From Escherichia coli (GTDB lineage Bacteria > Pseudomonadota > Gammaproteobacteria > Enterobacterales > Enterobacteriaceae): a stretch of 64,000 nt of DNA. This document shows, one piece after another, positions 3 to 23,190 of the stretch. Each line of letters starts with the position of its first letter. The first letter of the stretch is position 1. Location: NCBI RefSeq assembly GCF_011045215.1, contig NZ_CP049201.1. The stretch is one strand, 5' to 3'. The notes below the pieces were generated by a model that saw only the letters and a list, made by a program, of their open reading frames with translations, was not told where the DNA came from and made no database searches. A program made the position numbers and the translations under genes.

Positions 3-1100
3 GGCGTTGCACCGCTGGTGCGCCGTCGTGGCGATAAAAAAGGTGACACCGACGTCCACCAAAGTGCGCTCGGGCGTTTGCTGCAAAAAGGGGAACCGCA
101 AGATGCGGCAGGGCTTCGCACCTGTATTGAAGCGTTATGCGATGATGATATTGCCTGGCAAACGGCACAAACTGGTGATAACCAGCCCTGGCAGGTTAAT
201 GATGTTTTAACTGCAGAACTGAATGCGAGGACGCTACAACGATTGCCCGGCGATAACTGGCGTGTCACCAGCTACTCCGGTTTGCAGCAGCGTGGTCACG
301 GTATCGCTCAGGATCTGATGCCACGGCTGGATGTTGATGCCGCAGGCGTGGTCAGCGTCGTTGAAGAACCGACGTTAACACCGCATCAATTCCCGCGCGG
401 TGCGTCACCGGGGACATTCTTGCACAGTTTGTTTGAAGACCTCGATTTTACCCAGCCGGTTGACCCGAACTGGGTGCGGGAAAAACTGGAACTCGGCGGC
501 TTTGAATCGCAGTGGGAACCGGTATTGACCGAGTGGATCACGGCTGTCCTCCAGGCACCTCTCAATGAAACCGGCGTAAGCCTGAGTCAACTTTCCGCCC
601 GCAATAAACAGGTGGAGATGGAGTTTTATCTGCCGATTAGTGAACCGCTTATCGCCAGTCAGCTTGATACGTTAATCCGCCAGTTTGACCCGCTATCCGC
701 AGGCTGCCCGCCGCTGGAGTTCATGCAGGTACGTGGCATGTTAAAAGGCTTTATCGACCTGGTGTTCCGCCACGAAGGGCGTTATTACCTGCTCGACTAT
801 AAATCCAACTGGTTGGGTGAAGACAGTTCGGCTTACACCCAACAGGCTATGGCAGCGGCAATGCAGGTACACCGCTATGATCTGCAATATCAGCTTTATA
901 CCCTGGCGCTGCATCGTTATCTGCGCCATCGCATTGCTGATTACGACTATGAGCGCCACTTTGGCGGCGTTATTTATCTGTTCCTGCGTGGCGTTGATAA
1001 AGAACATCCGCAACAGGGGATTTACACAACCCGACCCAACGCCGGGTTGATTGCCCTGATGGATGAGATGTTTGCCGGTATGACCCTGGAGGAGGCGTAA
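3..1100 (+). CDS. recB: Exodeoxyribonuclease V beta subunit RecB, C-terminal part (5' end lies upstream of window)
   Basis: Open frame runs in from window edge to TAA at 1098-1100; C-terminal sequence recognised as RecB; stop overlaps recD start (TAATG); synteny with recD/argA. Confidence 0.9.
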
Positions 1101-2926
1101 TGAAATTGCAAAAGCAATTACTGGAAGCTGTGGAGCACAAACAGCTACGCCCGCTGGATGTGCAATTTGCCCTGACCGTGGCGGGAGATGAACATCCTGC
1201 CGTCACCATCGCGGCGGCACTGTTAAGTCATGATGCCGGAGAGGGACACGTTTGTTTGCCGCTTTCACGACTGGAAAATAACGAGGCGTCGCATCCGCTG
1301 TTGGCGACCTGTGTCAGTGAAATCGGTGAGCTACAAAATTGGGAAGAATGCTTGTTGGCTTCTCAAGCGGTCAGCAGGGGAGATGAACCCACGCCGATGA
1401 TCCTCTGTGGCGATCGTCTTTATTTGAATCGCATGTGGTGTAACGAGCGGACGGTAGCGCGCTTCTTCAATGAGGTGAATCATGCCATCGAGGTTGATGA
1501 AGCTCTACTGGCGCAAACCCTGGACAAACTTTTTCCAGTAAGCGATGAAATTAACTGGCAAAAAGTTGCAGCGGCAGTGGCGCTGACGCGGCGGATCTCG
1601 GTGATTTCCGGCGGCCCAGGCACCGGTAAAACGACCACCGTGGCGAAGTTGCTGGCAGCGTTAATTCAAATGGCCGACGGCGAACGCTGCCGTATCCGTC
1701 TGGCTGCACCAACGGGTAAAGCTGCCGCGCGCTTAACCGAATCTCTCGGCAAGGCTTTGCGACAGTTACCGCTGACCAATGAACAAAAGAAACGCATTCC
1801 GGAAGATGCCAGCACTTTGCACCGATTGCTGGGCGCGCAGCCGGGTAGCCAGCGTTTACGTCATCATGCCGGTAACCCGCTGCATCTTGATGTGCTGGTG
1901 GTAGATGAAGCGTCAATGATCGATCTGCCTATGATGTCGAGACTGATCGACGCCTTGCCAGATCATGCGCGAGTGATCTTTCTCGGCGATCGTGATCAAC
2001 TGGCCTCGGTTGAGGCTGGGGCTGTGCTGGGCGATATCTGCGCTTATGCCAACGCGGGCTTTACCGCCGAGCGTGCCAGGCAGCTAAGCCGCCTGACGGG
2101 GACTCACGTTCCGGCTGGAACTGGCACAGAAGCGGCATCTTTGCGCGACAGTCTCTGCCTGCTGCAAAAAAGCTATCGTTTCGGCAGCGATTCTGGCATT
2201 GGTCAGTTAGCTGCGGCGATCAACCGTGGTGATAAAACGGCAGTGAAAACCGTTTTTCAGCAGGATTTTACTGATATCGAAAAACGGCTTTTACAGAGCG
2301 GCGAAGATTATATTGCGATGCTTGAGGAAGCTCTTGCGGGTTATGGACGTTATCTGGATCTGCTGCAAGCGCGTGCCGAGCCGGATTTAATCATTCAGGC
2401 GTTCAATGAGTACCAACTTTTGTGCGCCCTGCGGGAAGGGCCATTTGGCGTGGCTGGACTGAATGAGCGAATTGAGCAGTTTATGCAACAGAAGCGCAAA
2501 ATTCATCGTAATCCGCACTCTCGTTGGTACGAAGGCCGACCGGTGATGATTGCCCGTAATGACAGCGCGCTTGGGTTGTTTAATGGCGATATCGGTATTG
2601 CGCTGGATCGCGGGCAGGGGACGCGCGTCTGGTTTGCGATGCCGGACGGCAATATTAAGTCTGTGCAACCGAGTCGTTTGCCAGAGCACGAAACTACGTG
2701 GGCGATGACGGTACATAAATCGCAGGGATCGGAGTTCGACCATGCGGCGTTGATTTTGCTGAGCCAACGCACGCCGGTAGTAACGCGAGAGCTGGTTTAT
2801 ACCGCGGTGACCCGCGCGCGTCGCCGTCTGTCGCTGTATGCCGATGAGCGCATATTAAGTGCGGCAATCGCCACTCGTACTGAGCGGCGCAGTGGTCTGG
2901 CGGCGTTGTTTAGTTCACGGGAATAA
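1100..2926 (+). CDS. recD: Exodeoxyribonuclease V alpha subunit RecD (608 aa)
   Basis: 608-aa ORF with Walker A motif GGPGTGKTT; length and sequence match RecD; start overlaps recB stop. Confidence 0.95.
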
Positions 2927-3105
2927 ACGTAATTGCCGGATGCGACGCACGAGTGTTACGCCTGCCGCATCCGGCGATTTTCGTCGCTTACCCTAAATCC
3001 GCCATCAACATCTTCGATTTTACGTAGGTCGGATAAGGCGTCCACGCCGCATCCGACGATTTTCGTCGCTTACCCTAAATCCGCCATTAACACTTTGGAT
3101 TTACG
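2927..3105. repeat. REP-type palindromes with a tandemly duplicated ~88-bp unit (REP arm + argA 3' terminus)
   Basis: Palindrome gccggatgcgacgc...gcctgccgcatccggc; segment cgattttcgtcgcttaccctaaatccgccat occurs twice (approx 2969-3010 and 3057-3092), second copy overlapping the argA stop region. Confidence 0.6.
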
Positions 3106-4401
3106 CTGGTAGTTGTACAACTGCTTTTTGCTTTCGGGCAGTAAATCAATATCCACTGGGGTAAATCCACGTTCCTGGAACCAGTGAATACTGCGCGTGG
3201 TCAGCACAAACAATTTGCTTAAGCCGCTCTGCTTCGCCTGAGCGGCAATGCGTTCCAGCAGAACTTCACCCCTTGATGAACTGCGGTAATCCGGGTGAAC
3301 TGCCACACAGGCCATTTCCCCAATCTTCTCTTCCGGGAACGGATAGAGCGCGGCGCAGGCAATAGTCGTGTTATCGCGCTGAATAATGGTGAATTTGTCG
3401 ATTTCCATCTCCAGCTGCTCGCGAGAACGGCGTACCAGAATACCTTGCTGCTCCAGCGGGCGAATCAACTCCAGAATACCGCCAATATCGTTGATTGTTG
3501 CGCGACGAATCTGCTCGGCGCTTTCCATCACAATCTGCGTACCGATACCGTCGCGTGAGAACAACTCTTGCAACAGCGCGCCATCTTCCTGATAACTGAT
3601 TAAATGACAGCGACGCACGCCGCTGCGGCAGGCTTTCACTGCGCCACGCAAAAAGCGCACCGTACCGGAGTTGTAATCACCTTTCTCTTCCTGGGCTTCT
3701 ACCCGCGCTTGCGCTTCGTTAGGGAAAAGTTCGGAGACAATATCACCGTCGTCATTAGTGACGCCCTGGGAAGAGCAAAAACCAATCATCTTTTCAGCTT
3801 TCAGTTTGATGGCCAGTTGAGTGGCAATCTCTTCCGAGGTCAGATTAAAGCTCTCGCCAGTGACTGAAACAGCGACCGGCCCCATTAGCACTATTGCACC
3901 GCTGTCCAGTTGACGATGGATCGCGTCTTCATCAATCCGCCGGATACGCCCGCTATGGCAGTAATCCACGCCGTCATCGACGCCCAGCGGCTGGGCAATA
4001 ATAAAATTGCCACTGACGACGTTGATATGCGCGCCCTGCAGCGGCGTGTTATTGAGACTCATCGACAGGCGAGCCGTAATATCCAGTTGCAATGTTCCCG
4101 CAGCCTGCTTCACCAGTTCCAGTGTTTTGGCGTCGGTCACACGTATATTCTTGTGATACAGCGGTTCGTGGTGATGCGCAGCCAGATTTGCGTCGATCTG
4201 CGGACGTGCGCCATAGACCACCACCAGACGGATGCCGAGGCTGTGCAACAACCCGATATCATTAACGATACTGGAGAAATTCTCATGCTCAATGGCTTCA
4301 CCGCCGAGCATGATGACAAACGTTTTTCCCCGGTGGGTATTGATATAGGGAACCGAATGGCGGAATCCCTCGACCAGCTCGGTTTTACGTTCCTTTACCA
4401 C
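3070..4401 (-). CDS. argA: N-acetylglutamate synthase ArgA (443 aa, GTG start)
   Basis: 465-aa ORF in track; recognised ArgA sequence begins at [14 protein letters not shown] codon at 4399-4401; ends ...KVLMADLG. Confidence 0.9.
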
Positions 4402-4632
4402 GGCACACCTCTTTGCATGATTATTCGAAATTATTGTATTTTTATTCTGTTTTTTCGCAGGGTGCAAGTGTAAATTTTATGCGAGAGCGACTTTTTTATC
4501 AGTAATACCGTGAATATAAAAAGAATGTTTACCGTTTATTAGATGACAGATTATGCGTCTTTCGCTAAAGTTTCCGGTCAAATTAGTCGTTTACTTGTTA
4601 CACAGCTTAGATTTCTTTTGCTCGGGAGAGGC

Positions 4633-5886
4633 ATGTCAGGATCCAACACTGCAATCAGCCGTCGTCGTTTACTGCAAGGCGCGGGTGCCATGTGGCTATT
4701 GAGCGTAAGTCAGGTCAGTCTGGCTGCGGTCAGCCAGGTCGTGGCGGTGCGCGTCTGGCCTGCGTCCAGCTACACCCGCGTGACGGTGGAATCAAATCGT
4801 CAGCTGAAATATAAGCAGTTCGCGTTGAGTAACCCTGAACGCGTGGTGGTGGATATCGAAGATGTAAACCTGAACTCGGTACTCAAGGGGATGGCGGCAC
4901 AAATTCGTGCAGACGACCCGTTCATCAAGTCGGCGCGCGTCGGGCAATTTGACCCGCAAACCGTACGGATGGTTTTTGAATTAAAGCAAAACGTAAAACC
5001 GCAGCTGTTTGCCCTTGCGCCGGTCGCCGGGTTTAAAGAGCGTCTGGTGATGGACCTCTATCCGGCCAATGCACAGGATATGCAGGATCCGCTGCTGGCG
5101 TTGCTGGAGGATTACAACAAAGGCGACCTCGAAAAGCAGGTGCCGCCAGCGCAAAGTGGTCCACAACCGGGTAAAGCAGGGCGCGATCGTCCGATTGTCA
5201 TTATGCTTGACCCTGGCCACGGTGGCGAAGACTCCGGTGCGGTGGGGAAATACAAAACGCGCGAAAAAGATGTGGTATTGCAAATAGCTCGCCGTTTGCG
5301 CTCTCTGATCGAGAAAGAGGGCAATATGAAGGTGTACATGACGCGCAATGAAGACATCTTCATTCCGTTGCAAGTGCGCGTAGCAAAAGCCCAGAAACAG
5401 CGTGCTGACCTGTTTGTCTCTATCCATGCCGACGCCTTTACCAGTCGTCAGCCGAGCGGTTCCTCTGTGTTTGCGCTCTCAACCAAAGGTGCAACCAGTA
5501 CTGCGGCAAAATATCTGGCACAAACCCAGAACGCCTCGGACTTGATTGGTGGCGTGAGCAAAAGCGGTGACCGCTATGTCGACCACACCATGTTCGATAT
5601 GGTGCAGTCGCTGACCATTGCCGACAGCCTGAAGTTTGGTAAAGCGGTACTGAATAAGCTCGGTAAAATCAACAAGCTGCATAAAAATCAAGTTGAACAG
5701 GCCGGGTTTGCCGTACTAAAGGCACCAGATATTCCCTCCATTCTGGTCGAAACGGCGTTTATCAGTAACGTTGAGGAAGAGCGTAAACTGAAAACGGCGA
5801 CCTTCCAGCAGGAAGTTGCAGAGTCTATTCTTGCAGGGATTAAAGCGTATTTTGCCGATGGAGCGACGCTGGCGAGAAGGGGATGA
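4633..5886 (+). CDS. amiC: N-acetylmuramoyl-L-alanine amidase AmiC (417 aa) with Tat-type signal
   Basis: ORF 4543-5886; likely start at [19 protein letters not shown] (twin-arginine motif); amidase_3-type sequence; synteny. Confidence 0.9.
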
Positions 5887-5914
5887 TAAAAAGGCGCTGA
5901 ATGGCGCTTTTTTA
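5887..5914. terminator. Bidirectional intrinsic terminator between amiC and the tRNA gene
   Basis: aaaaaGGCGCtgaatgGCGCtttttt: GC stem flanked by A-run and T-run. Confidence 0.55.
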
Positions 5915-5959
5915 TAGGAGACCAGAAACAAAAAAACACCCGCTAGGGTGTTCAATAAT

Positions 5960-6036
<77 letters not shown>

Positions 6037-6244
6037 TCCGTGGATGCGCACTATACTCCGCTCGCGTTTTCATGCAACCTTTTTTTTACCCCGATCACGG
6101 ATCTGGCATGATTTTGAACAAAAACAAATCACTAAAGCCTATTTTTTGTGCAAAATTTGCGTCAGGGAGAGGCTGCTCATTTCATTAAACGCGGTGGTTT
6201 GTTATCTTCGTTGCGCCTTATTTTTTAACCTGAAGAAGAGAACA

Positions 6245-7342
6245 ATGAAAGGACGTTGGGTAAAGTACCTTCTTATGGGCACGGTTGTGGCAATGCTTGC
6301 CGCCTGCTCTTCCAAACCAACCGATCGCGGACAGCAATATAAAGACGGGAAATTTACCCAGCCTTTCTCTCTGGTGAACCAACCAGATGCCGTTGGCGCG
6401 CCGATTAACGCCGGTGATTTTGCCGAGCAAATTAACCATATCCGTAATTCGTCACCGCGTCTGTATGGCAACCAGAGTAATGTTTATAACGCGGTGCAAG
6501 AGTGGCTGCGCGCAGGCGGTGATACCCGCAATATGCGCCAGTTCGGCATTGATGCCTGGCAGATGGAAGGTGCCGACAATTATGGTAACGTGCAGTTTAC
6601 AGGCTATTACACGCCGGTAATTCAGGCGCGCCATACCCGCCAGGGCGAGTTCCAGTATCCGATTTACCGTATGCCGCCAAAACGTGGTCGTCTGCCGTCT
6701 CGTGCGGAGATCTACGCGGGGGCATTGAGCGATAAATACATCCTCGCTTACAGCAACTCTCTGATGGATAATTTCATTATGGATGTGCAGGGTAGTGGGT
6801 ATATCGACTTTGGTGATGGCAGTCCGCTTAACTTTTTCAGCTATGCAGGGAAAAACGGTCATGCCTATCGCAGCATTGGTAAGGTGCTGATCGACCGTGG
6901 CGAAGTGAAAAAAGAAGATATGTCGATGCAGGCGATTCGTCACTGGGGCGAAACACACAGTGAAGCCGAGGTTCGCGAGCTGCTGGAACAGAACCCGTCT
7001 TTCGTTTTCTTTAAACCGCAATCTTTTGCACCGGTGAAAGGGGCAAGTGCGGTGCCGCTGGTTGGCCGTGCTTCTGTTGCCTCTGATCGTTCAATTATTC
7101 CGCCAGGTACAACCTTGCTGGCAGAAGTGCCGCTGCTGGATAATAACGGCAAATTTAACGGTCAGTATGAACTGCGTCTGATGGTGGCACTGGATGTCGG
7201 TGGCGCAATCAAAGGCCAACACTTCGATATCTATCAAGGGATCGGGCCGGAAGCCGGACACCGCGCAGGTTGGTACAACCACTATGGACGTGTCTGGGTG
7301 CTGAAAACGGCTCCGGGCGCAGGTAACGTCTTTAGCGGCTGA
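6245..7342 (+). CDS. mltA: Membrane-bound lytic murein transglycosylase A MltA (lipoprotein, 365 aa)
   Basis: Track ORF 5948-7342 is an artefactual upstream extension across the tRNA; true start at MKGRWVKYLLMGTVVAMLAACSS (lipobox LAAC). Confidence 0.92.
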   Translation: MKGRWVKYLLMGTVVAMLAACSSKPTDRGQQYKDGKFTQPFSLVNQPDAVGAPINAGDFAEQINHIRNSSPRLYGNQSNVYNAVQEWLRAGGDTRNMRQFGIDAWQMEGADNYGNVQFTGYYTPVIQARHTRQGEFQYPIYRMPPKRGRLPSRAEIYAGALSDKYILAYSNSLMDNFIMDVQGSGYIDFGDGSPLNFFSYAGKNGHAYRSIGKVLIDRGEVKKEDMSMQAIRHWGETHSEAEVRELLEQNPSFVFFKPQSFAPVKGASAVPLVGRASVASDRSIIPPGTTLLAEVPLLDNNGKFNGQYELRLMVALDVGGAIKGQHFDIYQGIGPEAGHRAGWYNHYGRVWVLKTAPGAGNVFSG

Positions 7343-7580
7343 TGTGATATTCTGTATGCCGTTTTTACGGATATGACAGGGTGAGGGATAACCTCACATC
7401 CTGATTATTGACTAAGTGCGCGTTGTTCATGCCGGATGCGGCGTGAACGCCTTATCCAGCCTACAAATCATGCAAATCCAAAATATTGCAGGAGTTATGT
7501 AGGCCTGATAAGCGTAGCGCATCAGGCATTTATGCGTTTAGGGTGAGGGATAACCTCGCCCTTTTTAATTCTGAGGTGCT
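7343..7580. repeat. REP/BIME-like palindromic cluster between mltA and tcdA
   Basis: gccggatgcggcgtgaacgccttatccagcctaca and aggcctgataagcgtagcgcatcaggc REP-type palindromes; small hairpin gggtgagggataacctc present twice (7379-7397, 7541-7561). Confidence 0.6.
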
Positions 7581-8387
7581 ATGTCTGTGGTAATTAGTGA
7601 TGCATGGCGTCAGCGTTTTGGTGGCACAGCGCGTCTGTATGGTGAAAAAGCGTTGCAACTGTTTGCTGACGCGCATATTTGTGTGGTTGGTATCGGTGGT
7701 GTCGGTTCCTGGACGGCGGAAGCGCTGGCGCGCACGGGGATTGGCGCAATCACGCTTATCGATATGGATGATGTGTGCGTCACCAATACCAATCGGCAAA
7801 TTCATGCCCTGCGCGATAACGTTGGGCTGGCAAAAGCGGAAGTCATGGCGGAACGTATTCGCCAGATTAACCCGGAGTGCCGTGTAACGGTGGTGGATGA
7901 TTTCGTGACGCCGGATAACGTAGCGCAATATATGAGTGCCGGTTATTCGTACGTGATTGATGCCATTGATAGTGTACGGCCCAAAGCGGCGCTGATTGCT
8001 TATTGTCGGCGCAATAAAATTCCGCTGGTCACGACCGGTGGCGCGGGTGGGCAGATTGACCCAACGCAGATTCAGGTTACCGATCTGGCGAAAACGATTC
8101 AGGACCCGCTGGCGGCGAAGTTGCGTGAGCGCCTGAAAAGCGATTTTGGCGTAGTGAAAAACAGTAAAGGTAAGCTCGGCGTGGATTGCGTGTTCTCTAC
8201 CGAAGCATTGGTGTACCCGCAGTCAGACGGCACGGTGTGTGCGATGAAAGCCACGGCGGAAGGACCAAAGCGGATGGATTGTGCATCTGGATTTGGCGCG
8301 GCAACTATGGTGACCGCCACCTTTGGGTTTGTTGCGGTTTCTCATGCGCTGAAGAAGATGATGGCGAAAGCGGCGCGTCAGGGGTAA
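7581..8387 (+). CDS. tcdA: tRNA threonylcarbamoyladenosine dehydratase TcdA/CsdL (268 aa, ThiF/MoeB-type E1-like)
   Basis: 268-aa ORF with GIGGVGSW nucleotide-binding motif; synteny with csdAE. Confidence 0.92.
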   Translation: MSVVISDAWRQRFGGTARLYGEKALQLFADAHICVVGIGGVGSWTAEALARTGIGAITLIDMDDVCVTNTNRQIHALRDNVGLAKAEVMAERIRQINPECRVTVVDDFVTPDNVAQYMSAGYSYVIDAIDSVRPKAALIAYCRRNKIPLVTTGGAGGQIDPTQIQVTDLAKTIQDPLAAKLRERLKSDFGVVKNSKGKLGVDCVFSTEALVYPQSDGTVCAMKATAEGPKRMDCASGFGAATMVTATFGFVAVSHALKKMMAKAARQG

Positions 8388-8437
8388 ACAATCAGGTCGG
8401 ATGCGACGCAAACGTCTTATCCGACCCGGTTCTGTGC
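8388..8437. repeat. REP-type palindrome between tcdA and csdE
   Basis: ggtcggatgcgacgcaaacgtcttatccgacc palindrome. Confidence 0.5.
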
Positions 8438-8881
8438 TTAAACCTGCTTCGTCGCAGCGATAATCGCCTCGCTTAACGCATTTAACCCCTGGCTGCGTGA
8501 GGCGCTAAGTTGCGCACGCAATCCCAGTTCATCAAACAATGCCAGCGGCGACTGTGCCTGCAATTCGGCGGCGGTTTTCCCCTCAACGGCAGTCAACAGC
8601 ACCGCCAGCAGGCCGCGCACTATACGTCCTTCGCTGTCGCCAAAGAAGTGCATTTTACCGTTTTCAGCCACGGTATATCCCAGCCAGACGCGGTTTTCGC
8701 ATCCGGCAATCTCTTTAGCCTGCGCTTTTAACTCGTCTGGCAAAGCCGGAAGCTGTTTCCCCAGCATGATCAACTGGCGATATTTATCTTCCCATTGCGT
8801 CAACGGTGCGAAGGTATTGCGTAACGTTTCTGCGGTTACGGTTGTGCCGAACGGGTGTCCGGCGAATTGCGGGTTCGTCAT
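8438..8881 (-). CDS. csdE: Sulfur acceptor protein CsdE (147 aa, SufE-like)
   Basis: 147-aa ORF; start overlaps csdA stop; synteny. Confidence 0.92.
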
Positions 8882-10086
8882 TAATCCACCAATAATTCCA
8901 GCGCGCGGTCAACGGCATTCACCAGCGCATCCACATCACTCTTTGTATTATATGGCGCAAAAGAGGCGCGCAGTGTGCCGGTTACGCCTAATTCTGCCAG
9001 TAGCGGCTGAGCGCAATGCTGCCCGGCGCGCAGGGCAATACCGTACTCCGCCAGCAGCGTCACCATATCGCTGTGATGAACGCCAGCAAAATCAAAGGCC
9101 AGCAGGCTGGAATCCTGGCAGCGGAATGAACGAAAGCCTGGACGTTTCGCCAGCGCTTCTTCTGCAAGCGTTGCCAGGCTACGGCTCCAGCTTTCGGCCT
9201 GGTTGATATCGTAATCTGCCAGCCATTCCAGCGCCGCGCTTAATCCTATGACACCAGCCACATTTGGCGTTCCTGCTTCCAGTTTCCACGGCGCAGATTG
9301 AGTCGTGAAGCCGTCAAAACTCACTTCGTGAATCATTTTTCCGCCGCCCAGCCAGGGTGACATTGCTTCCAGCAGTTCTGGTTTGCCATACAGCACGCCG
9401 ATACCTGTCGGGCCATACAGTTTGTGACCTGAAAAAGCATAGAAATCGATATCCAGTTGCTGAACATCCGCGGGGAAATGCACCGCCCCCTGAGCACCAT
9501 CAACCATCACCACCATCCCGGCTGAATGAGCAAAGGTAATCGCTCGCGCCAGATCCGGGCAACCGCCAGTAACGTTCGACATCTGACCCAACGCCAGAAT
9601 CCGACTACGGGGAGTAATCAGTTCTGGCAACAAATCGACATCCGGCAGTCGCTGCGCATTAAGCGGCAATTTCACCACTTTGGCTCCAGTTTGTTGGGCA
9701 ACCATCAGCCAGGGGACGAGGTTAGCGTGGTGTTCTGCCACGCTGACAATAATCTCATCGCCCGGTTGCAGACGCGGACGCGCATAGCATTGTGCCACCA
9801 TGTTGATGGATTCAGTGGTGCCGCGCGTCCAGACGATAGTTTTATCATCCGGTGCATTCAGTAATTGCGCCACTTTTTCCCGCGCAGCTTCATAACGCGC
9901 GGTCAGGCGTTGGGCTTCGGCAAACTGGCTGCGATGGACGTTTCCGGCGCTCAGACTGTAAAACTGTCGGGTGGCTTCAACCACGGCTTCAGGTTTAAGC
10001 GCGGTCGCGGCGCTGTCGAGATAGACGCCCGCATCCTGTAGAGCGGTAAACTGGGCGCGAAACTGCGCGGGATTAAAAACGTTCAT
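8881..10086 (-). CDS. csdA: Cysteine sulfinate desulfinase / cysteine desulfurase CsdA (401 aa)
   Basis: Track ORF 413 aa; recognised start [13 protein letters not shown] at 10086; class V aminotransferase-type sequence. Confidence 0.92.
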
Positions 10087-10277
10087 GGTACTCCTCGGCT
10101 TGATGCACCGATCGTGACGCAAAATTCACTTTGATACAAGGAGAGTGCTAACCATCAGAATTATCTGGATATCCTGGCGAAGCCGCGTCAGTAACATATG
10201 CTGAATAGTGTTAGGCGTTAATTTTAGCCTGTTAATCAATACTATTAAGATTTATTAATCGCTTTAAGGAGAAGATG

Positions 10278-10505
10278 ATGAAAAAGACTGCCGCAATTAT
10301 TTCTGCCTGTATGCTGACTTTTGCCCTGAGCGCCTGTTCCGGTTCGAACTATGTGATGCACACCAATGACGGACGTACCATCGTCTCTGACGGCAAACCA
10401 CAGACTGATAACGATACCGGTATGATTTCGTATAAAGACGCTAATGGCAGCAAACAGCAGATCAACCGTACCGACGTGAAAGAGATGGTCGAACTGGATC
10501 AGTAA
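10278..10505 (+). CDS. ygdI: Small lipoprotein YgdI (DUF903, 75 aa)
   Basis: MKKTAAIISACMLTFALSACSG signal/lipobox; length matches YgdI. Confidence 0.85.
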   Translation: MKKTAAIISACMLTFALSACSGSNYVMHTNDGRTIVSDGKPQTDNDTGMISYKDANGSKQQINRTDVKEMVELDQ

Positions 10506-10521
10506 TTCGCGATCGCAAGGT

Positions 10522-11230
10522 AATAAATATCCTCCGGCATAGCCGGAGGTTTTTCAAATGCGCCTATAAGGCTCTCTTACCAGCCGCGCCCTAACAGGCG
10601 CACACGATCTGACATTTGCATCCAACTTCGTTACTTACGGCCCGTAAACGGGCTGCCCGGATAGGGAATCGATAACTGCTCTCCCATTTCATCCTCTTCA
10701 AGCTGGTGCTTTATGTAATCCTGTATCTTCGCCGTGTTCTTACCCACCGTATCGACGTAGTACCCTCTGCACCAGAACTCCCTGTTCCTGTATTTGAATT
10801 TCAAATCCCCAAACTGCTCATAAAGCATCAGACTGCTTTTCCCTTTCAGATATCCCATAAAGCCGGATACGCTCATTTTGGGCGGGATCTCCACAAGCAT
10901 ATGGATATGATCTGCACAGCATTCAGCTTCAAGAATCCGTACGCTTTTCCACTCACACAGCTTTCTCAAAATACTGCCTATTGCTCTACGCTTCTCTCTG
11001 TAGAACACTTGTCTTCGGTATTTTGGCGCAAAAACTATGTGATATTTACAGTTCCATCGGGTGTGCGCTAAGCTCTTTTCGTTCCCCATTGGGACCCCCT
11101 TTTGATTTCTTGTTTGACACTTGCAGTTGCCAGACCGCAAGGTGTTTTAACAAATCAAAAGGGGTTTTAATAACTGGCTCAAAGCTGAAAGCTTTCCGGA
11201 ACCCCCAGCCTAGCTGGGGGTTTTCTGTGC
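10522..11230 (-). mobile_element. IS200 (IS200/IS605 family) insertion sequence, about 0.7 kb; ends approximate
   Basis: Contains a 152-aa Y1 (HuH) transposase near-identical to Salmonella IS200 TnpA; subterminal hairpins at 10531-10549 and 11200-11222; no terminal inverted repeats expected for this family. Confidence 0.85.
10631..11089 (-). CDS. tnpA: IS200 transposase TnpA (152 aa)
   Basis: MGNEKSLAHTRWNCKYHIVFAPKYRRQ...HIHML...GSPFTGRK; track ORF is extended 17 codons upstream of the likely start. Confidence 0.93.
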   Translation of the reverse strand: MGNEKSLAHTRWNCKYHIVFAPKYRRQVFYREKRRAIGSILRKLCEWKSVRILEAECCADHIHMLVEIPPKMSVSGFMGYLKGKSSLMLYEQFGDLKFKYRNREFWCRGYYVDTVGKNTAKIQDYIKHQLEEDEMGEQLSIPYPGSPFTGRK

Positions 11231-11232
11231 AC

Positions 11233-11438
11233 AAAAAAAAGCACCGCAATTAGGCGGTGCTACATTAATCACTATGGACAGACAGGGTAAATGTACAGGA
11301 AGTGAAAAAAGGTAGCTTTGCTACCATGGTCTGAATCGCAGACCAATTGCAAACACAACAACACAACATCACAACCGTAAGCCAAAAGTTCACCAGAACA
11401 CGCATTCCGATAAAACTTTTCGTTCCGGCTCAGGAAGT
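11233..11438 (-). ncRNA. gcvB: GcvB small regulatory RNA
   Basis: Reverse complement matches recalled GcvB sequence (ACTTCCTGAGCCGGAACGAAAAGTTTTATCGGAATGCGTGTTCTGGTGAACTTTTGGCTTACGG...) ending in terminator GCACCGCCTAATTGCGGTGC + U8; divergent from gcvA. Confidence 0.93.
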
Positions 11439-11566
11439 GCCGCCACTATAGGTATTTGCTGGTAGAAGCTCAACGGACAATTTATAATGGCTCAGATTAA
11501 AAAAACTAATAGGTTACACAGTGTGATCTAATTGTTAAATTCATTTAACATCAAAGTTTAAAAGCC
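11439..11566. promoter_or_regulatory. Divergent gcvB/gcvA control region
   Basis: AT-rich interval between gcvB 5' end and gcvA start; position only, sites not resolved. Confidence 0.45.
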
Positions 11567-12484
11567 ATGTCTAAACGATTACCACCGCTAAATGCCTTAC
11601 GAGTTTTTGATGCCGCAGCACGCCATTTAAGTTTCACTCGCGCAGCAGAAGAGCTTTTTGTGACCCAGGCCGCAGTAAGTCATCAAATCAAGTCTCTTGA
11701 GGATTTTCTGGGGCTAAAACTGTTCCGCCGCCGTAATCGTTCACTCCTGCTGACCGAGGAAGGTCAAAGCTATTTCCTCGATATCAAAGAGATATTTTCG
11801 CAATTAACCGAAGCGACGCGTAAACTCCAGGCCCGTAGCGCCAAGGGGGCGTTGACGGTCAGTTTACTCCCCAGTTTCGCCATTCATTGGTTGGTTCCGC
11901 GACTTTCCAGCTTTAATTCAGCTTATCCGGGAATTGACGTTCGAATCCAGGCGGTTGATCGTCAGGAAGATAAGCTGGCGGATGATGTTGATGTGGCGAT
12001 ATTTTATGGTCGGGGCAACTGGCCGGGGCTACGGGTGGAAAAACTGTACGCCGAATATTTATTGCCGGTGTGTTCGCCGCTACTGCTGACTGGCGAAAAA
12101 CCCTTGAAGACCCCGGAAGATCTGGCTAAACATACGTTATTACATGATGCGTCACGCCGTGACTGGCAGACATATACCCGACAGTTGGGGTTAAATCATA
12201 TCAACGTGCAGCAAGGGCCAATTTTTAGCCATAGCGCCATGGTGCTGCAAGCGGCTATCCACGGGCAGGGAGTGGCGCTGGCAAATAACGTGATGGCGCA
12301 ATCTGAAATTGAAGCCGGACGTCTTGTTTGCCCGTTTAATGATGTTCTGGTCAGTAAAAACGCTTTTTATCTGGTTTGTCATGACAGCCAGGCAGAACTG
12401 GGTAAAATAGCCGCCTTTCGCCAATGGATCCTGGCGAAAGCCGCTGCTGAACAAGAAAAATTCCGCTTTCGTTATGAACAATAA
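11567..12484 (+). CDS. gcvA: LysR-family glycine cleavage system regulator GcvA (305 aa)
   Basis: 305-aa ORF, N-terminal HTH (MSKRLPPLNALRVFDAAARHLSFTRAAEELFVTQAAVSHQIKSLE). Confidence 0.95.
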   Translation: MSKRLPPLNALRVFDAAARHLSFTRAAEELFVTQAAVSHQIKSLEDFLGLKLFRRRNRSLLLTEEGQSYFLDIKEIFSQLTEATRKLQARSAKGALTVSLLPSFAIHWLVPRLSSFNSAYPGIDVRIQAVDRQEDKLADDVDVAIFYGRGNWPGLRVEKLYAEYLLPVCSPLLLTGEKPLKTPEDLAKHTLLHDASRRDWQTYTRQLGLNHINVQQGPIFSHSAMVLQAAIHGQGVALANNVMAQSEIEAGRLVCPFNDVLVSKNAFYLVCHDSQAELGKIAAFRQWILAKAAAEQEKFRFRYEQ

Positions 12485-12502
12485 TTTACGTAGGGTACGA
12501 CC

Positions 12503-12898
12503 ATGACCAGCCGTTTTATGCTGATTTTCGCCGCCATTAGCGGCTTCATTTTTGTGGCTCTGGGCGCTTTTGGCGCGCATGTGTTAAGTAAAACCATGGG
12601 GGCCGTTGAGATGGGCTGGATCCAGACCGGCCTCGAATACCAGGCGTTTCATACTCTGGCGATCTTAGGTCTGGCGGTGGCAATGCAGCGTCGCATCAGT
12701 ATCTGGTTTTACTGGAGTAGCGTTTTCCTCGCGTTAGGCACGGTGCTGTTCAGCGGCAGCCTTTATTGCCTGGCACTGTCCCATCTGCGTTTGTGGGCGT
12801 TTGTCACTCCGGTTGGCGGCGTGAGCTTCCTTGCGGGCTGGGCGTTAATGTTAGTTGGTGCTATCCGTTTAAAGCGCAAGGGCGTAAGTCATGAATAA
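12503..12898 (+). CDS. ygdD: Inner membrane protein YgdD (DUF423, 131 aa)
   Basis: 131-aa hydrophobic ORF; overlaps rlmM start by 8 nt. Confidence 0.9.
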
Positions 12899-13991
12899 GG
12901 TTGTATTGCTGTGCCGTCCGGGCTTTGAAAAAGAGTGCGCCGCAGAAATTACCGATAAAGCCGGCCAGCGGGAAATTTTCGGTTTTGCCCGCGTGAAAGA
13001 GAATGCGGGTTATGTCATTTATGAATGTTATCAACCTGATGATGGCGATAAGTTAATCCGTGAGCTGCCGTTCAGTTCATTAATTTTTGCCCGCCAGTGG
13101 TTTGTGGTTGGGGAACTCCTGCAGCATTTGCCGCCAGAAGATCGTATTACCCCCATTGTCGGCATGTTACAGGGCGTAGTAGAGAAGGGCGGTGAACTGC
13201 GTGTTGAAGTTGCCGATACCAACGAAAGCAAAGAGTTGCTGAAATTCTGCCGTAAATTCACCGTGCCGCTACGCGCTGCCTTGCGCGATGCGGGGGTGCT
13301 GGCGAACTATGAAACGCCGAAGCGTCCGGTAGTGCATGTATTCTTCATTGCACCAGGCTGCTGCTATACCGGTTACTCATACAGCAACAATAATTCGCCA
13401 TTCTATATGGGCATTCCGCGCCTGAAATTTCCGGCAGATGCGCCGAGTCGTTCCACGCTCAAACTGGAAGAGGCATTTCATGTGTTTATTCCTGCGGATG
13501 AGTGGGATGAACGCCTGGCGAACGGGATGTGGGCGGTGGATTTGGGCGCTTGCCCAGGCGGCTGGACCTACCAACTGGTGAAGCGCAACATGTGGGTTTA
13601 TTCCGTCGACAACGGCCCGATGGCGCAAAGTCTGATGGATACCGGGCAGGTGACGTGGCTACGGGAAGACGGGTTCAAATTCCGTCCGACACGCAGCAAT
13701 ATCTCCTGGATGGTATGCGATATGGTTGAAAAACCGGCGAAAGTTGCGGCATTGATGGCGCAGTGGCTGGTTAATGGCTGGTGCCGTGAAACCATTTTCA
13801 ACCTCAAACTGCCGATGAAAAAACGCTACGAAGAAGTGTCACACAATCTGGCGTATATTCAGGCACAGCTTGATGAACATGGCATAAATGCTCAGATTCA
13901 GGCGCGGCAGTTGTATCACGATCGCGAAGAAGTGACGGTGCACGTCCGCCGCATCTGGGCTGCGGTGGGTGGTCGTCGCGACGAGCGATAA
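12891..13991 (+). CDS. rlmM: 23S rRNA 2'-O-ribose C2498 methyltransferase RlmM (366 aa)
   Basis: 366-aa ORF; synteny between ygdD and fucR. Confidence 0.92.
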
Positions 13992-14034
13992 CAGGCAAGG
14001 CCGGGGCGTCGTCTCCGGCCTGCTACCCTTTCCG

Positions 14035-14766
14035 TCAGGCTGTTACCAAAGAAGTTGCAACCTGGCGCTCATCAGAAATAATGTGCGTTACCTCATCCAG
14101 ATGCCCGATGCGGGCTTCCCCTGAACGATTAAATTTACTTTTATCAATCAATAACAACGATTGCGCGGCACGTTTTAATAGCATCGATTTGTAATCAGCG
14201 TTGATGGCATTGGAGTCCCACAGTGCGCCGCTGCTATCGATCCCTTCACAAGAAAAAATAAACAGATCGATTTCCAGCGATTTAAGTTGGGAAATCAGCG
14301 AGGGATTGACGTAACAGCCATATTTGCGCTCAAGTGTGCCGCCGGAACTGATCAGTTGAATGCGTTCGCGTTTACCGAGTTCATGGCAAATCGGATGGCT
14401 ATTGGTGAAGACCTGAATGTTGATGTCAGGCAACTGACGTGCCAGATACCAGCAGGTTGAACTGGCGTCTAAGGCTATCACCATCCCTTCTTCAATCCAC
14501 GCGAGCGCCTCGCGCGCGATATCTGCTTTATGCGCATAATGGCTTTTCAGCCTGATGTGAAAGGGATCGCCACTGTCTTGATTTTGACGGTGGATATATT
14601 TAGCGCGTCCATGATTGCGCAGAATTTTACCCTGCGTCTGTAATTCATTGAGATCGCGACGAATGGTTTCTTTACTGACCTTTAGCTGTTCAGAGAGAGC
14701 TTCCGTGGTCAGGCTGGTATGGTTCAGCAGCAGGTCGACTATCGCTTGCTGGCGTGCCGCTTTCAT
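14035..14766 (-). CDS. fucR: DeoR-family L-fucose operon activator FucR (243 aa)
   Basis: Track ORF 246 aa; recognised start MKAARQQAIVDLLLNHTSL. Confidence 0.92.
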   Translation of the reverse strand: MKAARQQAIVDLLLNHTSLTTEALSEQLKVSKETIRRDLNELQTQGKILRNHGRAKYIHRQNQDSGDPFHIRLKSHYAHKADIAREALAWIEEGMVIALDASSTCWYLARQLPDINIQVFTNSHPICHELGKRERIQLISSGGTLERKYGCYVNPSLISQLKSLEIDLFIFSCEGIDSSGALWDSNAINADYKSMLLKRAAQSLLLIDKSKFNRSGEARIGHLDEVTHIISDERQVATSLVTA

Positions 14767-14823
14767 ATTTTTCACCCCATCATTCGATAACCGCCCGCGT
14801 CATGCGGGCGTACCGGTATGAGA

Positions 14824-15246
14824 TTACGGTGTTACCCCTTTTTTTAAAAGAATATTCCCGTACTTCGCTCGTTCGCCTGTGATAACGATCGCAAAGGCTT
14901 TTTGCGCACGTTCATAAAACGCAAAACGATTGATGCGGATGATGTCAGGACACGGGGCTTGTAGTGAAAGCGCATTACGGTAACGTCGTTCTACTTCAGG
15001 ATCGAGAGTGTCACCTTCTACCGCCGCCATCATCACCAGCGGTGGTGCATAACTGTCCAGTTCAAATAACGGGATAATCGCCTGGAGCAAGTCGCTCACC
15101 AACAGGCCATCAGCGCGGATCACCTGCGGTCCCATCGAATGGGCGGGAAAGTGAGCATCGGAAAAAATAATTTCATCTCCATGTCCCATCTCTGCCAGCA
15201 CTTTCAATAGTTCGGGAGAAATTAACGGCGAAATTGTTTTCAGCAT
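14824..15246 (-). CDS. fucU: L-fucose mutarotase FucU (140 aa)
   Basis: 140-aa ORF; fuc operon synteny. Confidence 0.93.
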
Positions 15247-15247
15247 T

Positions 15248-16666
15248 TCACACTTCCTCTATAAATTCAGGTTCAGTTTGCGGGTAGAAATAACGGTACT
15301 GATAATGAATCTGTGCACGGGCTTCTTCCGGGCTGTTAAATTCCCCTACGCCATACCAACCGAACAGCGCAGCTCCTGCGACGGTCGTTTCAGCATCGTC
15401 GAGAACTTTTACCGGAATATCAAGCATATTGGCTTTAATCTGATTCCACAATGTGTTGCGACTTCCTCCACCGACTAACAATAATTCAGAGGCTTTAAAG
15501 TGGCCGATTTTTTCCAGCATCTGTAGATTGCGCTGTAATTGCGCAGTTAACCCTTCTAGCGCCGCGCGATAGAAATGCCCCCGCGTGGTATTAAGCGTCA
15601 CTCCTTGCCAGCCAGCGTTCTGACACGACAATAAATCACACTGCATTTTTACGCCATCCGCGCCAGGCGCGATCAGACGAGCCTCTTCAATCAACATTTG
15701 CCAGGGTGTTTCAGCCGTCCAGAACAGTTTTCTCACCCATTCCAGCACGCCGGATGCCAGCCATTGCATACCTGGGTTATACAACCCTGCCTGGCTATCC
15801 AGTTCGCAGGTGGAACCGGCGTACTGACTTAACAGCGAAGTATCAACCTGGGCGCTACGGACCATTAAAATTTCCCATGTACCGGAAGAGAGCACGGGTT
15901 CATTTTGGTCGGCACCAGCGCCAAAAAGGGCGAACTGGGTATCGTGACCTGCGGAAATCACCGGTATGCCAACGGGTAAGCCGAGCATTGCTGCGGCGCT
16001 GTTCTGTAGCGTACCAATCTGTTCACCCGCTTCCACCAGACGAGGGAAGAGTCGGCGTGGAATACCGGTGGCTTGTAAAATTTGCGGACTGAAATCGCGT
16101 TGCTGGATATCCAGCATCTGGCTGGTTCCGGCCATCGTGATATCAGTAGTGAATTCGCCGGTTAAACGGTGGTTAATCAGCGACGAAATAAAGAGCCAGG
16201 CGTGCGCGCGTTCCAGCAGTTGTGGATGATTTTCTTTCAACCACACCAACTTATATAACGTATTGAAACTAAAGGCTCCGACGCCAGAAATAGCCTGCAA
16301 CCGCTGTGCGGAGATCAACTGTTCAATATTGTCCATAACCGCTGCTGTTCGCGGACATTTCCAGCTAATGATCGGATAGAGCAGATTACCTTGCTTATCT
16401 ACCAGAGCGCCATCCACACCAAAGGTGGTGACGGCGATACCGCGGATGTGGCATTCAGTCAGTTCACTATTGATTTGCCGACAGCAATCAGCAAAGCGTT
16501 GCAAAATGGCGTCTAAAGACCACTGGTGCCAGGTGTTGTTTTCCATCGCGATATCGCTGGCATTAGGCGTTGAGGCGCGGGCAACAATTTTTCCCTGCCG
16601 ATTAACCGCGATGGCCCTGACATTGGTCGCGCCACAGTCGAGTACCAGGATAACTTCTTGTTTCAT
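15248..16666 (-). CDS. fucK: L-fuculokinase FucK (472 aa, FGGY kinase)
   Basis: 472-aa ORF; FGGY-type sequence; synteny. Confidence 0.93.
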
Positions 16667-16683
16667 AATCGCTCCTGCAATAT

Positions 16684-16750
16684 AGCCGGATAATATTGCT
16701 TATCCGGCTAACCACTCTTGCTTGTTCAGGCCCGGTAGCCGGAGCGACCG
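16684..16750. repeat. Palindromic hairpins in the fucI-fucK intercistronic region
   Basis: Perfect 10-bp inverted repeat agccggataa/ttatccggct (16684-16709) and gcccggt/accgggc stem. Confidence 0.4.
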
Positions 16751-16774
16751 GGCATCACATCAGGGAGTAATGTA

Positions 16775-18550
16775 TTAACGCTTGTACAACGGCCCGTAGT
16801 TCTGGCAAGCGCGGTAATCTTGGCCTTCAATATCCATGCCGTGCGCAGCCCAGGCAGAAGGACGATACACTTTGGTCTCTTCTACGTTGTGCATACATAC
16901 CGGGATACGCAGCATGGAGGCGAGAGTGATAAAGTCTGCGCCAACGTGGCCGATGGTCAGAACCCCATGGTTAGCGCCCCAGTTCGCCATTACCGAGTAC
17001 ACATCCGTAAACGGCCCTTTACCGGTGAGGCGCGGTGCAAACCAGGTGGTTGGCCAGGTTGAGTTGGTGCGTTTGTTGAGGATGTCATGCACATCCTTCG
17101 GCAATTCCACGCTCCAGCCTTCCGCGATTTGCAGTACCGGTCCCAGGCCTTTGATGATGTTGACACGAGTCATGGTGAACGGGACGCCGCCTTCGGTAAG
17201 GAAGCGGGAAGAGTAACCGCCGCCACGGAAGTATTCGTGGATCGCCGGGCACCATTCGGTAGCGGCGAGGCAAGCGTCAGCCTCTTGCTGAGAGATTTCC
17301 CAGTGCGGCTTCATCGTCGGGTTACCTTCGCTGTCGCGTTGTTTACAGGAACCGTCCAGCGCAGCAGAACCTGAGTTGATCAAATGGATGATGCCGTGTT
17401 CTGCCAGTCCATCGAGTTTATGCCCCGTTACACGCTCAATTGCTTCTGGTGACCAGTAGGTACGCACATCGGCAAATACCTGAGCGGTGCCGGTGAGCTG
17501 GTGACCCATTAGCATTGCCACGCCGTTAAGACTGTCGTTTTCGGTCGCCACGACAAAGGGTTCGCGCACGCCATTCCAGTCAAATGAACTGTTAAGGATC
17601 GCTTCGGCGGTGTCGCCATTGGGATATTGATCGGTCCAGTGGCGTTGTCCCTGGAAGCCCGCAGCGATGGCGTTGTAGCCAAGTGATTCTTCCACGCGAC
17701 CAATATCGGCCAGTTTGCTGTTGCCTTGCATCATGTCGCGGATACACATCGCCATCAGTAAACTTTCGCGCAGAACTGCGCGGCTTTGCTCGGCATTACG
17801 TTGATACTGTTTGTTATTTTCATCTTCGCCATAGCGGAAGTTTTTATCAGCCCAGGCCAGTGCCATTTCCAGTTCGGCTTCGTCGTAAATCTTCTGATCG
17901 ATACGGCGACGCAGTTCGGTCATATCCACCGCCTGGACTTTCATTCCCAGCCAGGATTCAAAGAAGTTGTGATCAACAATGGAACCGGCGATACCCATCG
18001 AAACGCCGCCCAGCGACAGATAGCTTTTACCTTTCATACTGGCGACGGCCAAACCGGCGCGGGCAAAGCGCAGCAGTTTTTCTTCAACATCGGCAGGAAT
18101 CGATGTGTCATCGGCATCCTGAACGTCATGACCGTAAATGGAGAATGCCGGGATGCCTTTCTGGCTGTGAGCTGCCAGAGCCGCGGCCAGGTAAACAGCG
18201 CCGGGGCGTTCAGTGCCGTTAAAGCCCCAAATGGCTTTCGGGCGGGTTGGATCCATGTCGATGGTTTCACTGCCATAGCACCAGCAAGGCGTTACCGTAA
18301 TGGTGAGGCCTACATTCTGACTGCTAAATTTTTCTTCGCAAGCCGCGGCTTCAGCCATACCCGCGATACAGGTATCGGAAATGACACACTCGACGGCAGC
18401 TCCGCAGGCATGGCGCAGTTTCTCGGTCAGCAGTGCGGCCGTAGCTTTCGCCATATTCATTGTTTGTTCTTCAAGCGACTCACGAACACCCATGCGACGA
18501 CCGTCAATAACCGGGCGGATACCAATTTTCGGTAAGCTGATTTTTTTCAT
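16775..18550 (-). CDS. fucI: L-fucose isomerase FucI (591 aa)
   Basis: 591-aa ORF; sequence recognised; synteny. Confidence 0.95.
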
Positions 18551-18582
18551 TACAGATTCCTCACTTTATTCGGAAAATATGT

Positions 18583-19899
18583 TCAGTTAGTTGCCGTTTG
18601 AGAACGGAAACGGGCAAAGATAAAGATGACCGCGAAGCAGAGTGCGGGGATCAGTTCAGCAGTGGGGATGTTGCCCGCCGCGTCACTGACAAAACCCATG
18701 ACCGGAGTGACAATACCGCCGCCAATGATGGTCATAACGATGAAGGACGAACCGTATTTGGTGTCCTGGCCGAGATTCTTAATGCCCAGCGAGAAGATTG
18801 TTGGGTACTGAATCGACATAAAGGCGCTGCATAAAGTCAGGGCTATTAAGCCCACATGACCGTCAGCGAAGGCTGAGATCAGGCACAGTGCCATAGCGAT
18901 TAATGCGTAGGCGGCCAGGACTTTGTGTGGTGCGAAGCGACTGATGAGCCAGGTACCGGTGAAACGACCAATAAAGAAGCACACCATGGTTCCGGTTAAA
19001 TAGTTAGCGGCAAAGCCTGCAGTCATACCTGGAATTTCTTCTACAGCGTAGCGAATCAAATAGCTCCAGCAGGCCGTTTGTGCGCCAACGTAGCAGAATT
19101 GCGCTAATACTGCCCAGCGCCAGTGGCGAATACGCGCCAGGCGAGAAAGCGATGCGGAGAACGATCCTTGTTTGGCGTCACTGTGATTATCACTCTGCAA
19201 TGCCGGGAATTTCGTCAGCATGATCAGCAGGGCGACCAGTAACACGATAGCCACGATGATCATATAAGGTGTCTGTACCGATAATACCAGGCTGTGTTTA
19301 TACGCACTCAATTGCTCTGGAGACATTTTATCGAGAACGTCTTGCGATTGATGTGGCACGTTAGACAAAATAAGACTTTGCCCAAAGACAACCGCGATAA
19401 TTGCGCCAAATGAGTTAAATGTTTGCGCAAGATTTAAGCGGAAGTGACCACTGCTTTCCGGCCCTAATACCGTAACAAAAGGGTTTGCGGCAGTTTCCAG
19501 ACAACCTAATCCGGCTGCAATAATAAATAGGCCAACTAAAAATAAGGTGTAGTTCATTATTTCTGCGGCGGGCCAGAATAATGCAGCACCCAAGGCATAT
19601 AAAAATAACCCGGTAATAATTCCTGCTTTATAACTGAGTTTTTTCATCAATATCCCAGCAGGGATTGGGATAATGAAATAACCAAAGTAAAAGGCCGATT
19701 GGATCAGGCCAGCCTGGAAATTTGTCAGTGTAAAAGCCTGCTGGAATTGAGGTAATAAAATGTCGTTAAGGTTATTGGCTACCGCCCAAAGAAAAAACAG
19801 TGAGCACAGCAGCGCGAATGGAATAATGTAACTTCTGCTTTGCCCTGCATCTTTATCTACCGCACGGTAACTCTGCGTTTGTATTGATGTGTTTCCCAT
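18583..19899 (-). CDS. fucP: L-fucose:H+ symporter FucP (438 aa, MFS)
   Basis: 438-aa polytopic membrane ORF; synteny. Confidence 0.95.
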   Translation of the reverse strand: MGNTSIQTQSYRAVDKDAGQSRSYIIPFALLCSLFFLWAVANNLNDILLPQFQQAFTLTNFQAGLIQSAFYFGYFIIPIPAGILMKKLSYKAGIITGLFLYALGAALFWPAAEIMNYTLFLVGLFIIAAGLGCLETAANPFVTVLGPESSGHFRLNLAQTFNSFGAIIAVVFGQSLILSNVPHQSQDVLDKMSPEQLSAYKHSLVLSVQTPYMIIVAIVLLVALLIMLTKFPALQSDNHSDAKQGSFSASLSRLARIRHWRWAVLAQFCYVGAQTACWSYLIRYAVEEIPGMTAGFAANYLTGTMVCFFIGRFTGTWLISRFAPHKVLAAYALIAMALCLISAFADGHVGLIALTLCSAFMSIQYPTIFSLGIKNLGQDTKYGSSFIVMTIIGGGIVTPVMGFVSDAAGNIPTAELIPALCFAVIFIFARFRSQTATN

Positions 19900-21093: not shown

Positions 21094-21120
21094 TTTCGTA
21101 AAGCAACAAGGAGAAGGATG

Positions 21121-22269: not shown

Positions 22270-22285
22270 ATGCGCTGATGTGATA

Positions 22286-22316
22286 ATGCCGGATGCGACG
22301 TTTGCGGCGTATCCGG
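22286..22316. repeat. REP element downstream of fucO
   Basis: gccggatgcgacgtttgcggcgtatccggc palindrome. Confidence 0.5.
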
Positions 22317-22323
22317 CACGCCG

Positions 22324-23190
<867 letters not shown>

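Follow-up and report, generated by a model that had tools for sequence, protein, structure and literature searches.

The convergent genes recD and argA are separated, stop to stop, by a spacer of 143 nt in the window, by which we refer to the whole analyzed stretch of 64,000 nt of Escherichia coli DNA. This spacer corresponds to a K-12-type spacer plus 82 nt. On either side of it the sequence is almost that of K-12, with 226 of 227 positions identical over the last 227 nt of recD and 297 of 298 over the 298 nt of argA beyond the repeat that forms the subject of this analysis. Ordered along the window, the locus comprises the following features:

1100-2926, plus strand: recD, 608 amino acids, stop codon TAA at 2924-2926; assigned from the list of open reading frames and the annotated recD at matching E. 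coli positions
2934-2975, no strand: decayed BIME hairpin, recognized by its inverted repeat and by RNA folds
2964-3020, no strand: direct repeat copy 1 (relic), consisting of a y' right arm (2964-2975), a 12-nt spacer (2976-2987), a stop codon TTA (2988-2990) and ten argA codons (2991-3020)
3021-3023, no strand: junction nucleotides TAC between the relic and the REP, of uncertain origin (GAT in the 14EC020-type allele)
3024-3057, plus strand: intact y-type REP GTAGGTCGGATAAGGCGTCCACGCCGCATCCGAC, with GTAG at 3024-3027 and a two-base AA/GC stem mismatch
3046-3102, no strand: direct repeat copy 2 (live), consisting of the right arm of the y REP (3046-3057), a 12-nt spacer (3058-3069), the argA stop codon (3070-3072) and the last ten codons (3073-3102)
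3070-4401, minus strand: argA, 443 amino acids, intact and with its native C-terminus; residues 1-443 align to relatives

The two copies, 2964-3020 and 3046-3102, are direct repeats of 57 nt whose starts lie 82 nt apart. They are identical at 52 of the 57 positions, the mismatches between copy 1 and copy 2 being found at 2974, 3006, 3011, 3012, and 3015, and their longest common exact run covers 31 nt (2975-3005). The chance expectation of such a repeat in the window is approximately 1e-18. Each copy is built from the right arm of a REP, GCCGCATCCG[G/A]C, followed by the 12-nt spacer GATTTTCGTCGC, the trinucleotide TTA (the stop codon as seen from the minus strand) and 30 nt representing ten codons. 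Copy 2 is the true terminus of argA, while copy 1, whose conceptual translation is KSKMLMADLG*, is not part of the gene. Translation of the relic was considered and rejected because of an upstream in-frame stop and the absence of a start codon.

The first-pass annotation of this DNA had described the interval as REP-X-REP-X, with X containing the last codons and the stop of argA and with the outer X representing a duplicate of the argA end outside the gene. This layout is correct. X is present in both copies, and the argA-distal one (copy 1) is non-coding. The similarity is also not confined to the REP core, since past the REP arm the copies agree at 41 of 45 positions. Two other elements of that description had to be revised. 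The unit, given there as ~88 bp, has an actual period of 82 nt, 57 nt of which are repeated, and the term tandem duplication of a REP unit does not fit, as the left parts share no similarity and the two palindromes differ in kind and state. A simple tandem duplication is expected to show similarity across its whole period; here, 57 of the 82 nt are similar and the 25 nt preceding each copy (2939-2963 and 3021-3045) are unrelated. Congruently, Tandem Repeats Finder reported no array between 2500 and 3600 at a score of 30.

The differences between the copies are unevenly distributed, with four of the five located in the 16 nt adjoining the junction (P = 0.019). The remainder of copy 1, together with the hairpin, equals the K-12-type allele of strain PS10-3 except for 1 nt. 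Both observations fit a later recombination that overwrote the sequence up to the end of homology. Within the entire 64 kb, only two families of local direct repeats of at least 30 nt were detected, the recD-argA repeat and a CRISPR array. The latter (52307-52593) has a period of 61 nt and at least five repeats of GTTCCCCGCGCCAGCGGGGATAAACCG, which we take to resemble the E. coli type I-E repeat.

Short REP-rich repeats can confuse assemblers, and the allele of the window is missing from all complete E. coli genomes of the census below. We considered whether the source assembly might have collapsed or expanded a repeat. In an independent short-read assembly (k = 31), the Logan contig of SRR11014969, the only exact match to the RecD of the window, ends at window position 3004. 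This is the last base before the shared 31-mer (2975-3005) completes, i.e., exactly the point at which a k = 31 graph must branch given two copies. The break of this contig at the repeat makes a mis-assembly unlikely. Furthermore, the five mismatches tell the copies apart, and 131-133 finished genomes carry a related allele with a relic. Taken together, an assembly artefact is extremely improbable.

Extension of the analysis toward other genomes was based on a census of 5,425 complete E. coli genomes, with Shigella and draft genomes lying outside it. The spacer occurs in the following forms, X denoting the 12-nt spacer, the stop and the last ten argA codons, and S a BIME linker:

K-12 type, 61 nt: z(deleted) - y' - X; about 4,400-4,560 of 5,425 genomes
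N50 type, 81 nt: full z - y' - X; about 732 genomes
14EC020 type, 237 nt: z - y' - X1 - GAT - y REP - S linker - z - y' - X2; 131-133 genomes, including APEC O78:H4 and O2 strains
Window type, 143 nt: z(deleted) - y' - X1 - TAC - y REP - X2; 0 of 5,425 genomes
L006 type: z - linker - intact y REP - 12 nt - argA stop, without relic; one diverged Escherichia, labelled E. coli SCPM-O-B-8794

At this hypervariable REP/BIME locus, the allele of the window represents a rare length variant. Its additional 82 nt are missing from K-12 as from most E. coli. The 143-nt form was found in none of the 5,425 complete E. coli genomes, where the best matches span 179 nt for a 261-nt query. A megablast search of the junction (2985-3075) against 5,426 E. 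coli genomes returned generic REP matches of 34-35 nt only, and metagenome scans for the relic-REP junction as well as for the combination of y REP, 12 nt and argA stop gave 0 matches each. The L006-type spacer was likewise absent from the complete E. coli genomes, its best alignments (84%) being those to N50-type spacers.

The two palindromes of the window allele are of different quality. The one at 3024-3057 matches the y-REP pattern with zero mismatches over its 34 nt; its arms GTCGGATAAGGCG and CGCCGCATCCGAC pair except for AA versus GC, and the hairpin appears in RNA folds. A sub-threshold match (33.7 bits) to the Rfam family naRNA4, a REP-derived RNA family, simply reflects the REP. Both the 5' GTAG and the AA/GC stem mismatch are needed for binding by TnpA-REP (Ton-Hoang et al. 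2012, PMC3333891). Near copies of 33-34 nt are found at other loci in 2,240 E. coli genomes, e.g., beside artM and ycfP, and the L006 spacer contains the identical 34-mer. In a search for a donor locus sharing both this REP and its left flank, the sequences to the left of the REPs at artM and ycfP proved unrelated. The window contains two more intact y-type REPs (7431-7464, minus strand; 36213-36246, plus strand), neither of them with flanking direct repeats.

The element at 2934-2975 consists of the left part of a z-type REP with an internal deletion of 20 nt, visible in the alignment with N50 and 14EC020, followed by y', a y-type REP devoid of GTAG and of its left arm. It carries neither GTAG nor CTAC, and no intact z REP was found in the window. 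The right arms of y and y' are alike at 11 of 12 nt. A single uninterrupted alignment (84%) covers the N50-type spacer and the z-linker-y spacer of L006, which shows y' to be the degraded counterpart of the y REP of L006. Judged by its sequence, the window allele is a decayed BIME plus one intact REP. With just this one intact REP it lacks a feature of BIMEs that the 14EC020 and L006 alleles possess.

In the longer allele of 14EC020 (L002, 528-764), two units of ~115 nt, sharing 96 matches with 17 mismatches and 4 gaps, each run from just past the recD stop to codon -10 of argA, with the y REP and an S-type linker between them. What follows the y REP is similar to the linker from y to z in the ycfP BIME, and the repeated unit looks BIME-2-like in its order y-S-z-linker-y'. 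The 237-nt spacer is nearly uniform across its 131-133 carriers. Like the window, this allele contains a relic argA end of its own, which meets the same y REP (33 of 34 positions) at the same codon. Its argA is intact, and the relics of both alleles carry AAA>AAG. The common y REP, the common codon and the shared AAA>AAG point to one origin. Counting against a single history, the junction nucleotides differ (TAC versus GAT), as do the relic tails at two more positions, so that two independent events at the same argA site are possible.

Regarding the age of the duplication, the window and 14EC020 differ at 9 of 94 positions over relic and REP, compared with about 2-2.6% in the flanking genes. 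Considering that 9 of 94 is close to the neutral-site divergence between distant E. coli lineages, the duplication looks old. The relic is missing in L006, in four Citrobacter genomes and in Salmonella arizonae, with the REPs of Citrobacter and S. arizonae being different ones. L006, the outgroup within Escherichia among the matches listed (E. fergusonii, E. albertii and the cryptic clades stand outside this comparison), carries a y REP identical to that of the window at 12 nt from the argA stop; its recD end is ~10% diverged from the window according to an estimate by eye from the sequences rather than a computed value. Given the absence of the relic in these outgroups, the duplication would have arisen within E. 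coli, taken in the broad sense.

These comparisons also bear on a recent simple tandem duplication in the window genome, formed by slipped-strand mispairing or by unequal sister exchange between REPs. Such an event would account for two copies in close proximity and direct orientation, the palindromes in front of them having the same right arm. However, it should have repeated more than 57 of the 82 nt and left an array detectable by Tandem Repeats Finder. It would also have to accommodate five differences between the copies although the surrounding genes are only ~0.4% away from K-12, as well as the same junction in 131-133 genomes of another lineage. We regard this explanation as largely refuted and very improbable. 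A fresh local event, which the first-pass annotation had implied, is consequently not upheld, given 5 differences in 57 nt and a relic-REP junction that the longer allele of the 131-133 genomes also has.

On a larger scale, the best complete E. coli genomes are ~99.1% identical to the window over 20 kb (3200-23200), compared with ~99.6% for the recD and argA ends relative to K-12. Judging from these identities and from the single public short-read assembly that matches RecD exactly, the window seems to come from an uncommon lineage of E. coli/Shigella whose local ancestry is mosaic. Comparison with E. coli FDAARGOS_943 revealed two differences elsewhere in the window. A single tRNA-Met gene (5960-6036) is located downstream of amiC, where FDAARGOS_943 has two tandem copies; this copy-number difference explains a BLAST overlap at 5958-6038. 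In addition, the window has an insertion of ~705 nt (~10528-11232) between ygdI and csdA. Its open reading frame (10631-11140, minus strand) matches the Pfam family Y1_Tnp, "Transposase IS200 like", with E = 3.8e-38, a superfamily that includes TnpA-REP.

Based on the anatomy and the distribution of alleles, we favor, at a probability of roughly 55%, an old and inherited REP/BIME-associated insertion-duplication that was later trimmed by deletions and recombination. In an initial step, an intact y REP would have been joined to argA at codon -10 in an E. coli ancestor; in the longer allele, this y REP belongs to a canonical y-S-z BIME-2 unit like that of ycfP. The end at codon -10 that was joined to the REP would have been a nascent strand or a broken end. 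The resident spacer segment would then have been copied again beyond the REP, leaving argA whole, either by a replication template switch or by unequal exchange, with re-entry guided by the homology of the REP arms. Re-entry at REP arms would account for the exact coincidence of the repeat's start in the window with a REP right arm. Subsequently, the inherited structure may have been trimmed by deletions between REP arms. A deletion of 94 nt between the right arm of y, CGCATCCGACGAT, and the second y' right arm, CGCATCTGGCGAT, would convert the 237-nt form into the window form, and recombination with majority alleles would have homogenized the flanks. The forms of 61 and 81 nt might have arisen by deletion between the direct repeats of relic-bearing forms or might be older than the event.

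The anatomy, the distribution of alleles, the junction common to both relic-bearing forms and the lack of a relic in the outgroups can be read directly from the sequences. The order of events and the enzymology are what we infer from them, and among three possible mechanisms REP-guided template switching or unequal exchange is the favored one. In this respect the term REP-mediated, as used in the first-pass annotation, is a reasonable reading of the sequence: with the repeat starting exactly at a REP arm and the junction occupied by an intact REP, such a role of REPs is plausible. The almost K-12-like flanks, with 1 mismatch in 227 and 1 in 298 nt, count against the favored history. They demand that the old 82-nt block persisted or was moved by recombination, which is an extra assumption.

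A more specific role can be envisaged for TnpA-REP, the RAYT enzyme of the Y1 HUH type. According to the amplification model (Ton-Hoang et al. 2012), it would have attached to the y REP with its GTAG, cleaved single DNA strands at C^T sites (the caret denoting the cut or joint) in the BIME and in the argA 3' end, and rejoined the ends, thereby adding a BIME unit carrying an argA fragment. TnpA-REP joins C^T sites in vitro and was proposed to let BIME units "sequester" flanking gene fragments (PMC3333891). The only REP of the locus that retains GTAG and the AA/GC mismatch, the determinants described in PMC3333891, sits exactly at the junction. Read in the argA sense, this junction adjoins GACC^TACG, fitting the "iREP II" cleavage consensus of PMC3333891, and six nt upstream of the breakpoint, native argA reads AAC^TAC. 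Cleavage at more than 400 nt from a REP was shown in the same study (PMC3333891), and the repeated unit of 14EC020 resembles a BIME-2 unit of the order y-S-z-linker-y'.

The joints themselves are less easily reconciled with this enzyme. The predicted one reads ...GACC^TACCAGCGTAAATCC, whereas ...GACCTACGTAAAATCG is found in the window and ...GACCTACATCAAATCA in 14EC020, both being 3 nt shorter and carrying substitutions. On the plus strand, the junction GATTT^TAC^GTAGG (carets separating relic, junction nucleotides and REP) contains no CT dinucleotide. Simple amplification should moreover duplicate the whole unit, which disagrees with the unrelated 25 nt to the left of the copies. In vivo activity of such kind was not shown, a caveat expressed in PMC3333891 itself. 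Within the examined parts of the 64-kb window, no tnpA-REP gene was seen. Weighing both sides, we consider an origin by TnpA-REP unlikely. It is still less probable that the relics of the window and of 14EC020 are natural in vivo footprints of TnpA-REP, maybe from two independent events at the same argA site. If true, they would represent a rare case in which RAYT-driven BIME growth and the capture of coding sequence can be reconstructed from the products, and RAYT-driven BIME growth would become assayable via a simple length polymorphism.

A target-site duplication made by a transposon was also considered and rejected on account of its size, since the repeats of 45-57 nt in the window and of ~115 nt in 14EC020 contrast with the fixed 2-14 bp expected. 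The IS200-related enzymes linked to REPs make no target-site duplications (PMC2817692).

The coding sequence preserved in the relic raises a different possibility, namely that the relic is the former argA terminus of a recipient. In such an allelic replacement, a y REP together with an argA 3' end would have been imported by a recombination that was homologous in or beyond argA and illegitimate at the resident codon -10, leaving the last ten codons and the spacer behind. The coding changes in the relic are three synonymous ones (TCC>TCA/TCG twice, AAA>AAG) versus one conservative replacement (GTG>ATG), although only 19 of the 90 possible substitutions are synonymous (P = 0.03). The relic of 14EC020 still encodes the exact native peptide of ten residues, and its TCA AAG is the argA state of Citrobacter braakii and Salmonella arizonae, not that of Escherichia. 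The synonymous bias and the TCA AAG state hint that a diverged allele formerly used the relic as its functional terminus. The structure required of the donor, an identical y REP followed by 12 nt and the argA stop, is carried by L006. Nevertheless, the bias is based on four events only, with P rising to 0.08 if 30% of mutations are synonymous. Both flanks of the window are K-12-like, so that donor and recipient tracts are no longer visible. An allelic replacement also leaves the 14EC020 form unexplained, in which the REP is separated from argA by a complete second z-y' unit. In sum, we consider this origin rather improbable and retain the inherited insertion-duplication as the preferred history.

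In terms of function, the relic is without evident function and almost certainly neutral. Its sole plausible effect, as suggested by RNA folding, would be a second stable hairpin between the convergent genes. The predicted fold reaches -63.6 kcal/mol in the argA sense (z-score -2.8) and -56.3 kcal/mol in the recD sense (z-score -3.3). Scans for promoters and terminators gave nothing above the shuffled background. In the window, argA keeps its native end, and a palindrome starts 12 nt past the argA stop throughout all alleles. The spacing between a REP and a stop codon reportedly affects translation termination, an effect attributed to Liang, Rudd and Deutscher (2015), and 12 nt is said to be within the reported range. 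A literature search combining REP, stop codon and tmRNA found nothing. The palindrome 12 nt after the stop could merit a look with respect to argA expression.

The recD-argA case is an ordinary REP/BIME length polymorphism with a duplicated gene end and, with recD as well as argA intact, is of little import alone. It does illustrate that REP/BIME turnover can duplicate a gene end undamaged and leave datable relics. The spacer lengths of 61, 81, 143, and 237 nt can serve as a strain-typing marker, and the window allele together with the 237-nt alleles represents a small natural data set for models of REP spread, i.e., template switching versus cleavage and joining by TnpA-REP.

Several known systems share features with this locus. 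In a formal sense the window allele resembles a target-site duplication, with an insert of 37 nt (TAC plus the y REP) between direct repeats of 45 nt, but 45-113 nt far exceeds any duplication made by a transposase. Chromosomal tandem duplications mediated by REPs, reportedly described by Shyamala, Schneider and Ames (1990), are said to span kilobases to hundreds of kilobases and to be unstable. They have in common with the recD-argA case that REP homology is the join point; in contrast to them, the latter is 82 nt in length, diverged and inherited. Closer in size and content are the gene-capturing BIMEs at codA-cynR and at tnpA-REP loci (PMC3333891), in which a neighbouring coding piece likewise lies inside a REP-bounded repeated unit. 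Compared by description, the recD-argA case differs from them in the captured piece of 33 nt and in joints that do not seem to bear the predicted C^T signature.

Length polymorphism of BIMEs and REPs in intergenic regions of E. coli was reportedly documented by Bachellier et al. (1997). The recD-argA spacer resembles such BIME/REP polymorphism (PMC3333891) in being extragenic, in its position between convergent genes, and in y and z REPs that vary by strain to give 61, 81, 143, or 237 nt. It deviates in that the repeated block extends 45 nt past the REP into the 3' UTR and ten codons of argA, forming an unclean version of the REP-linker-REP repeat.
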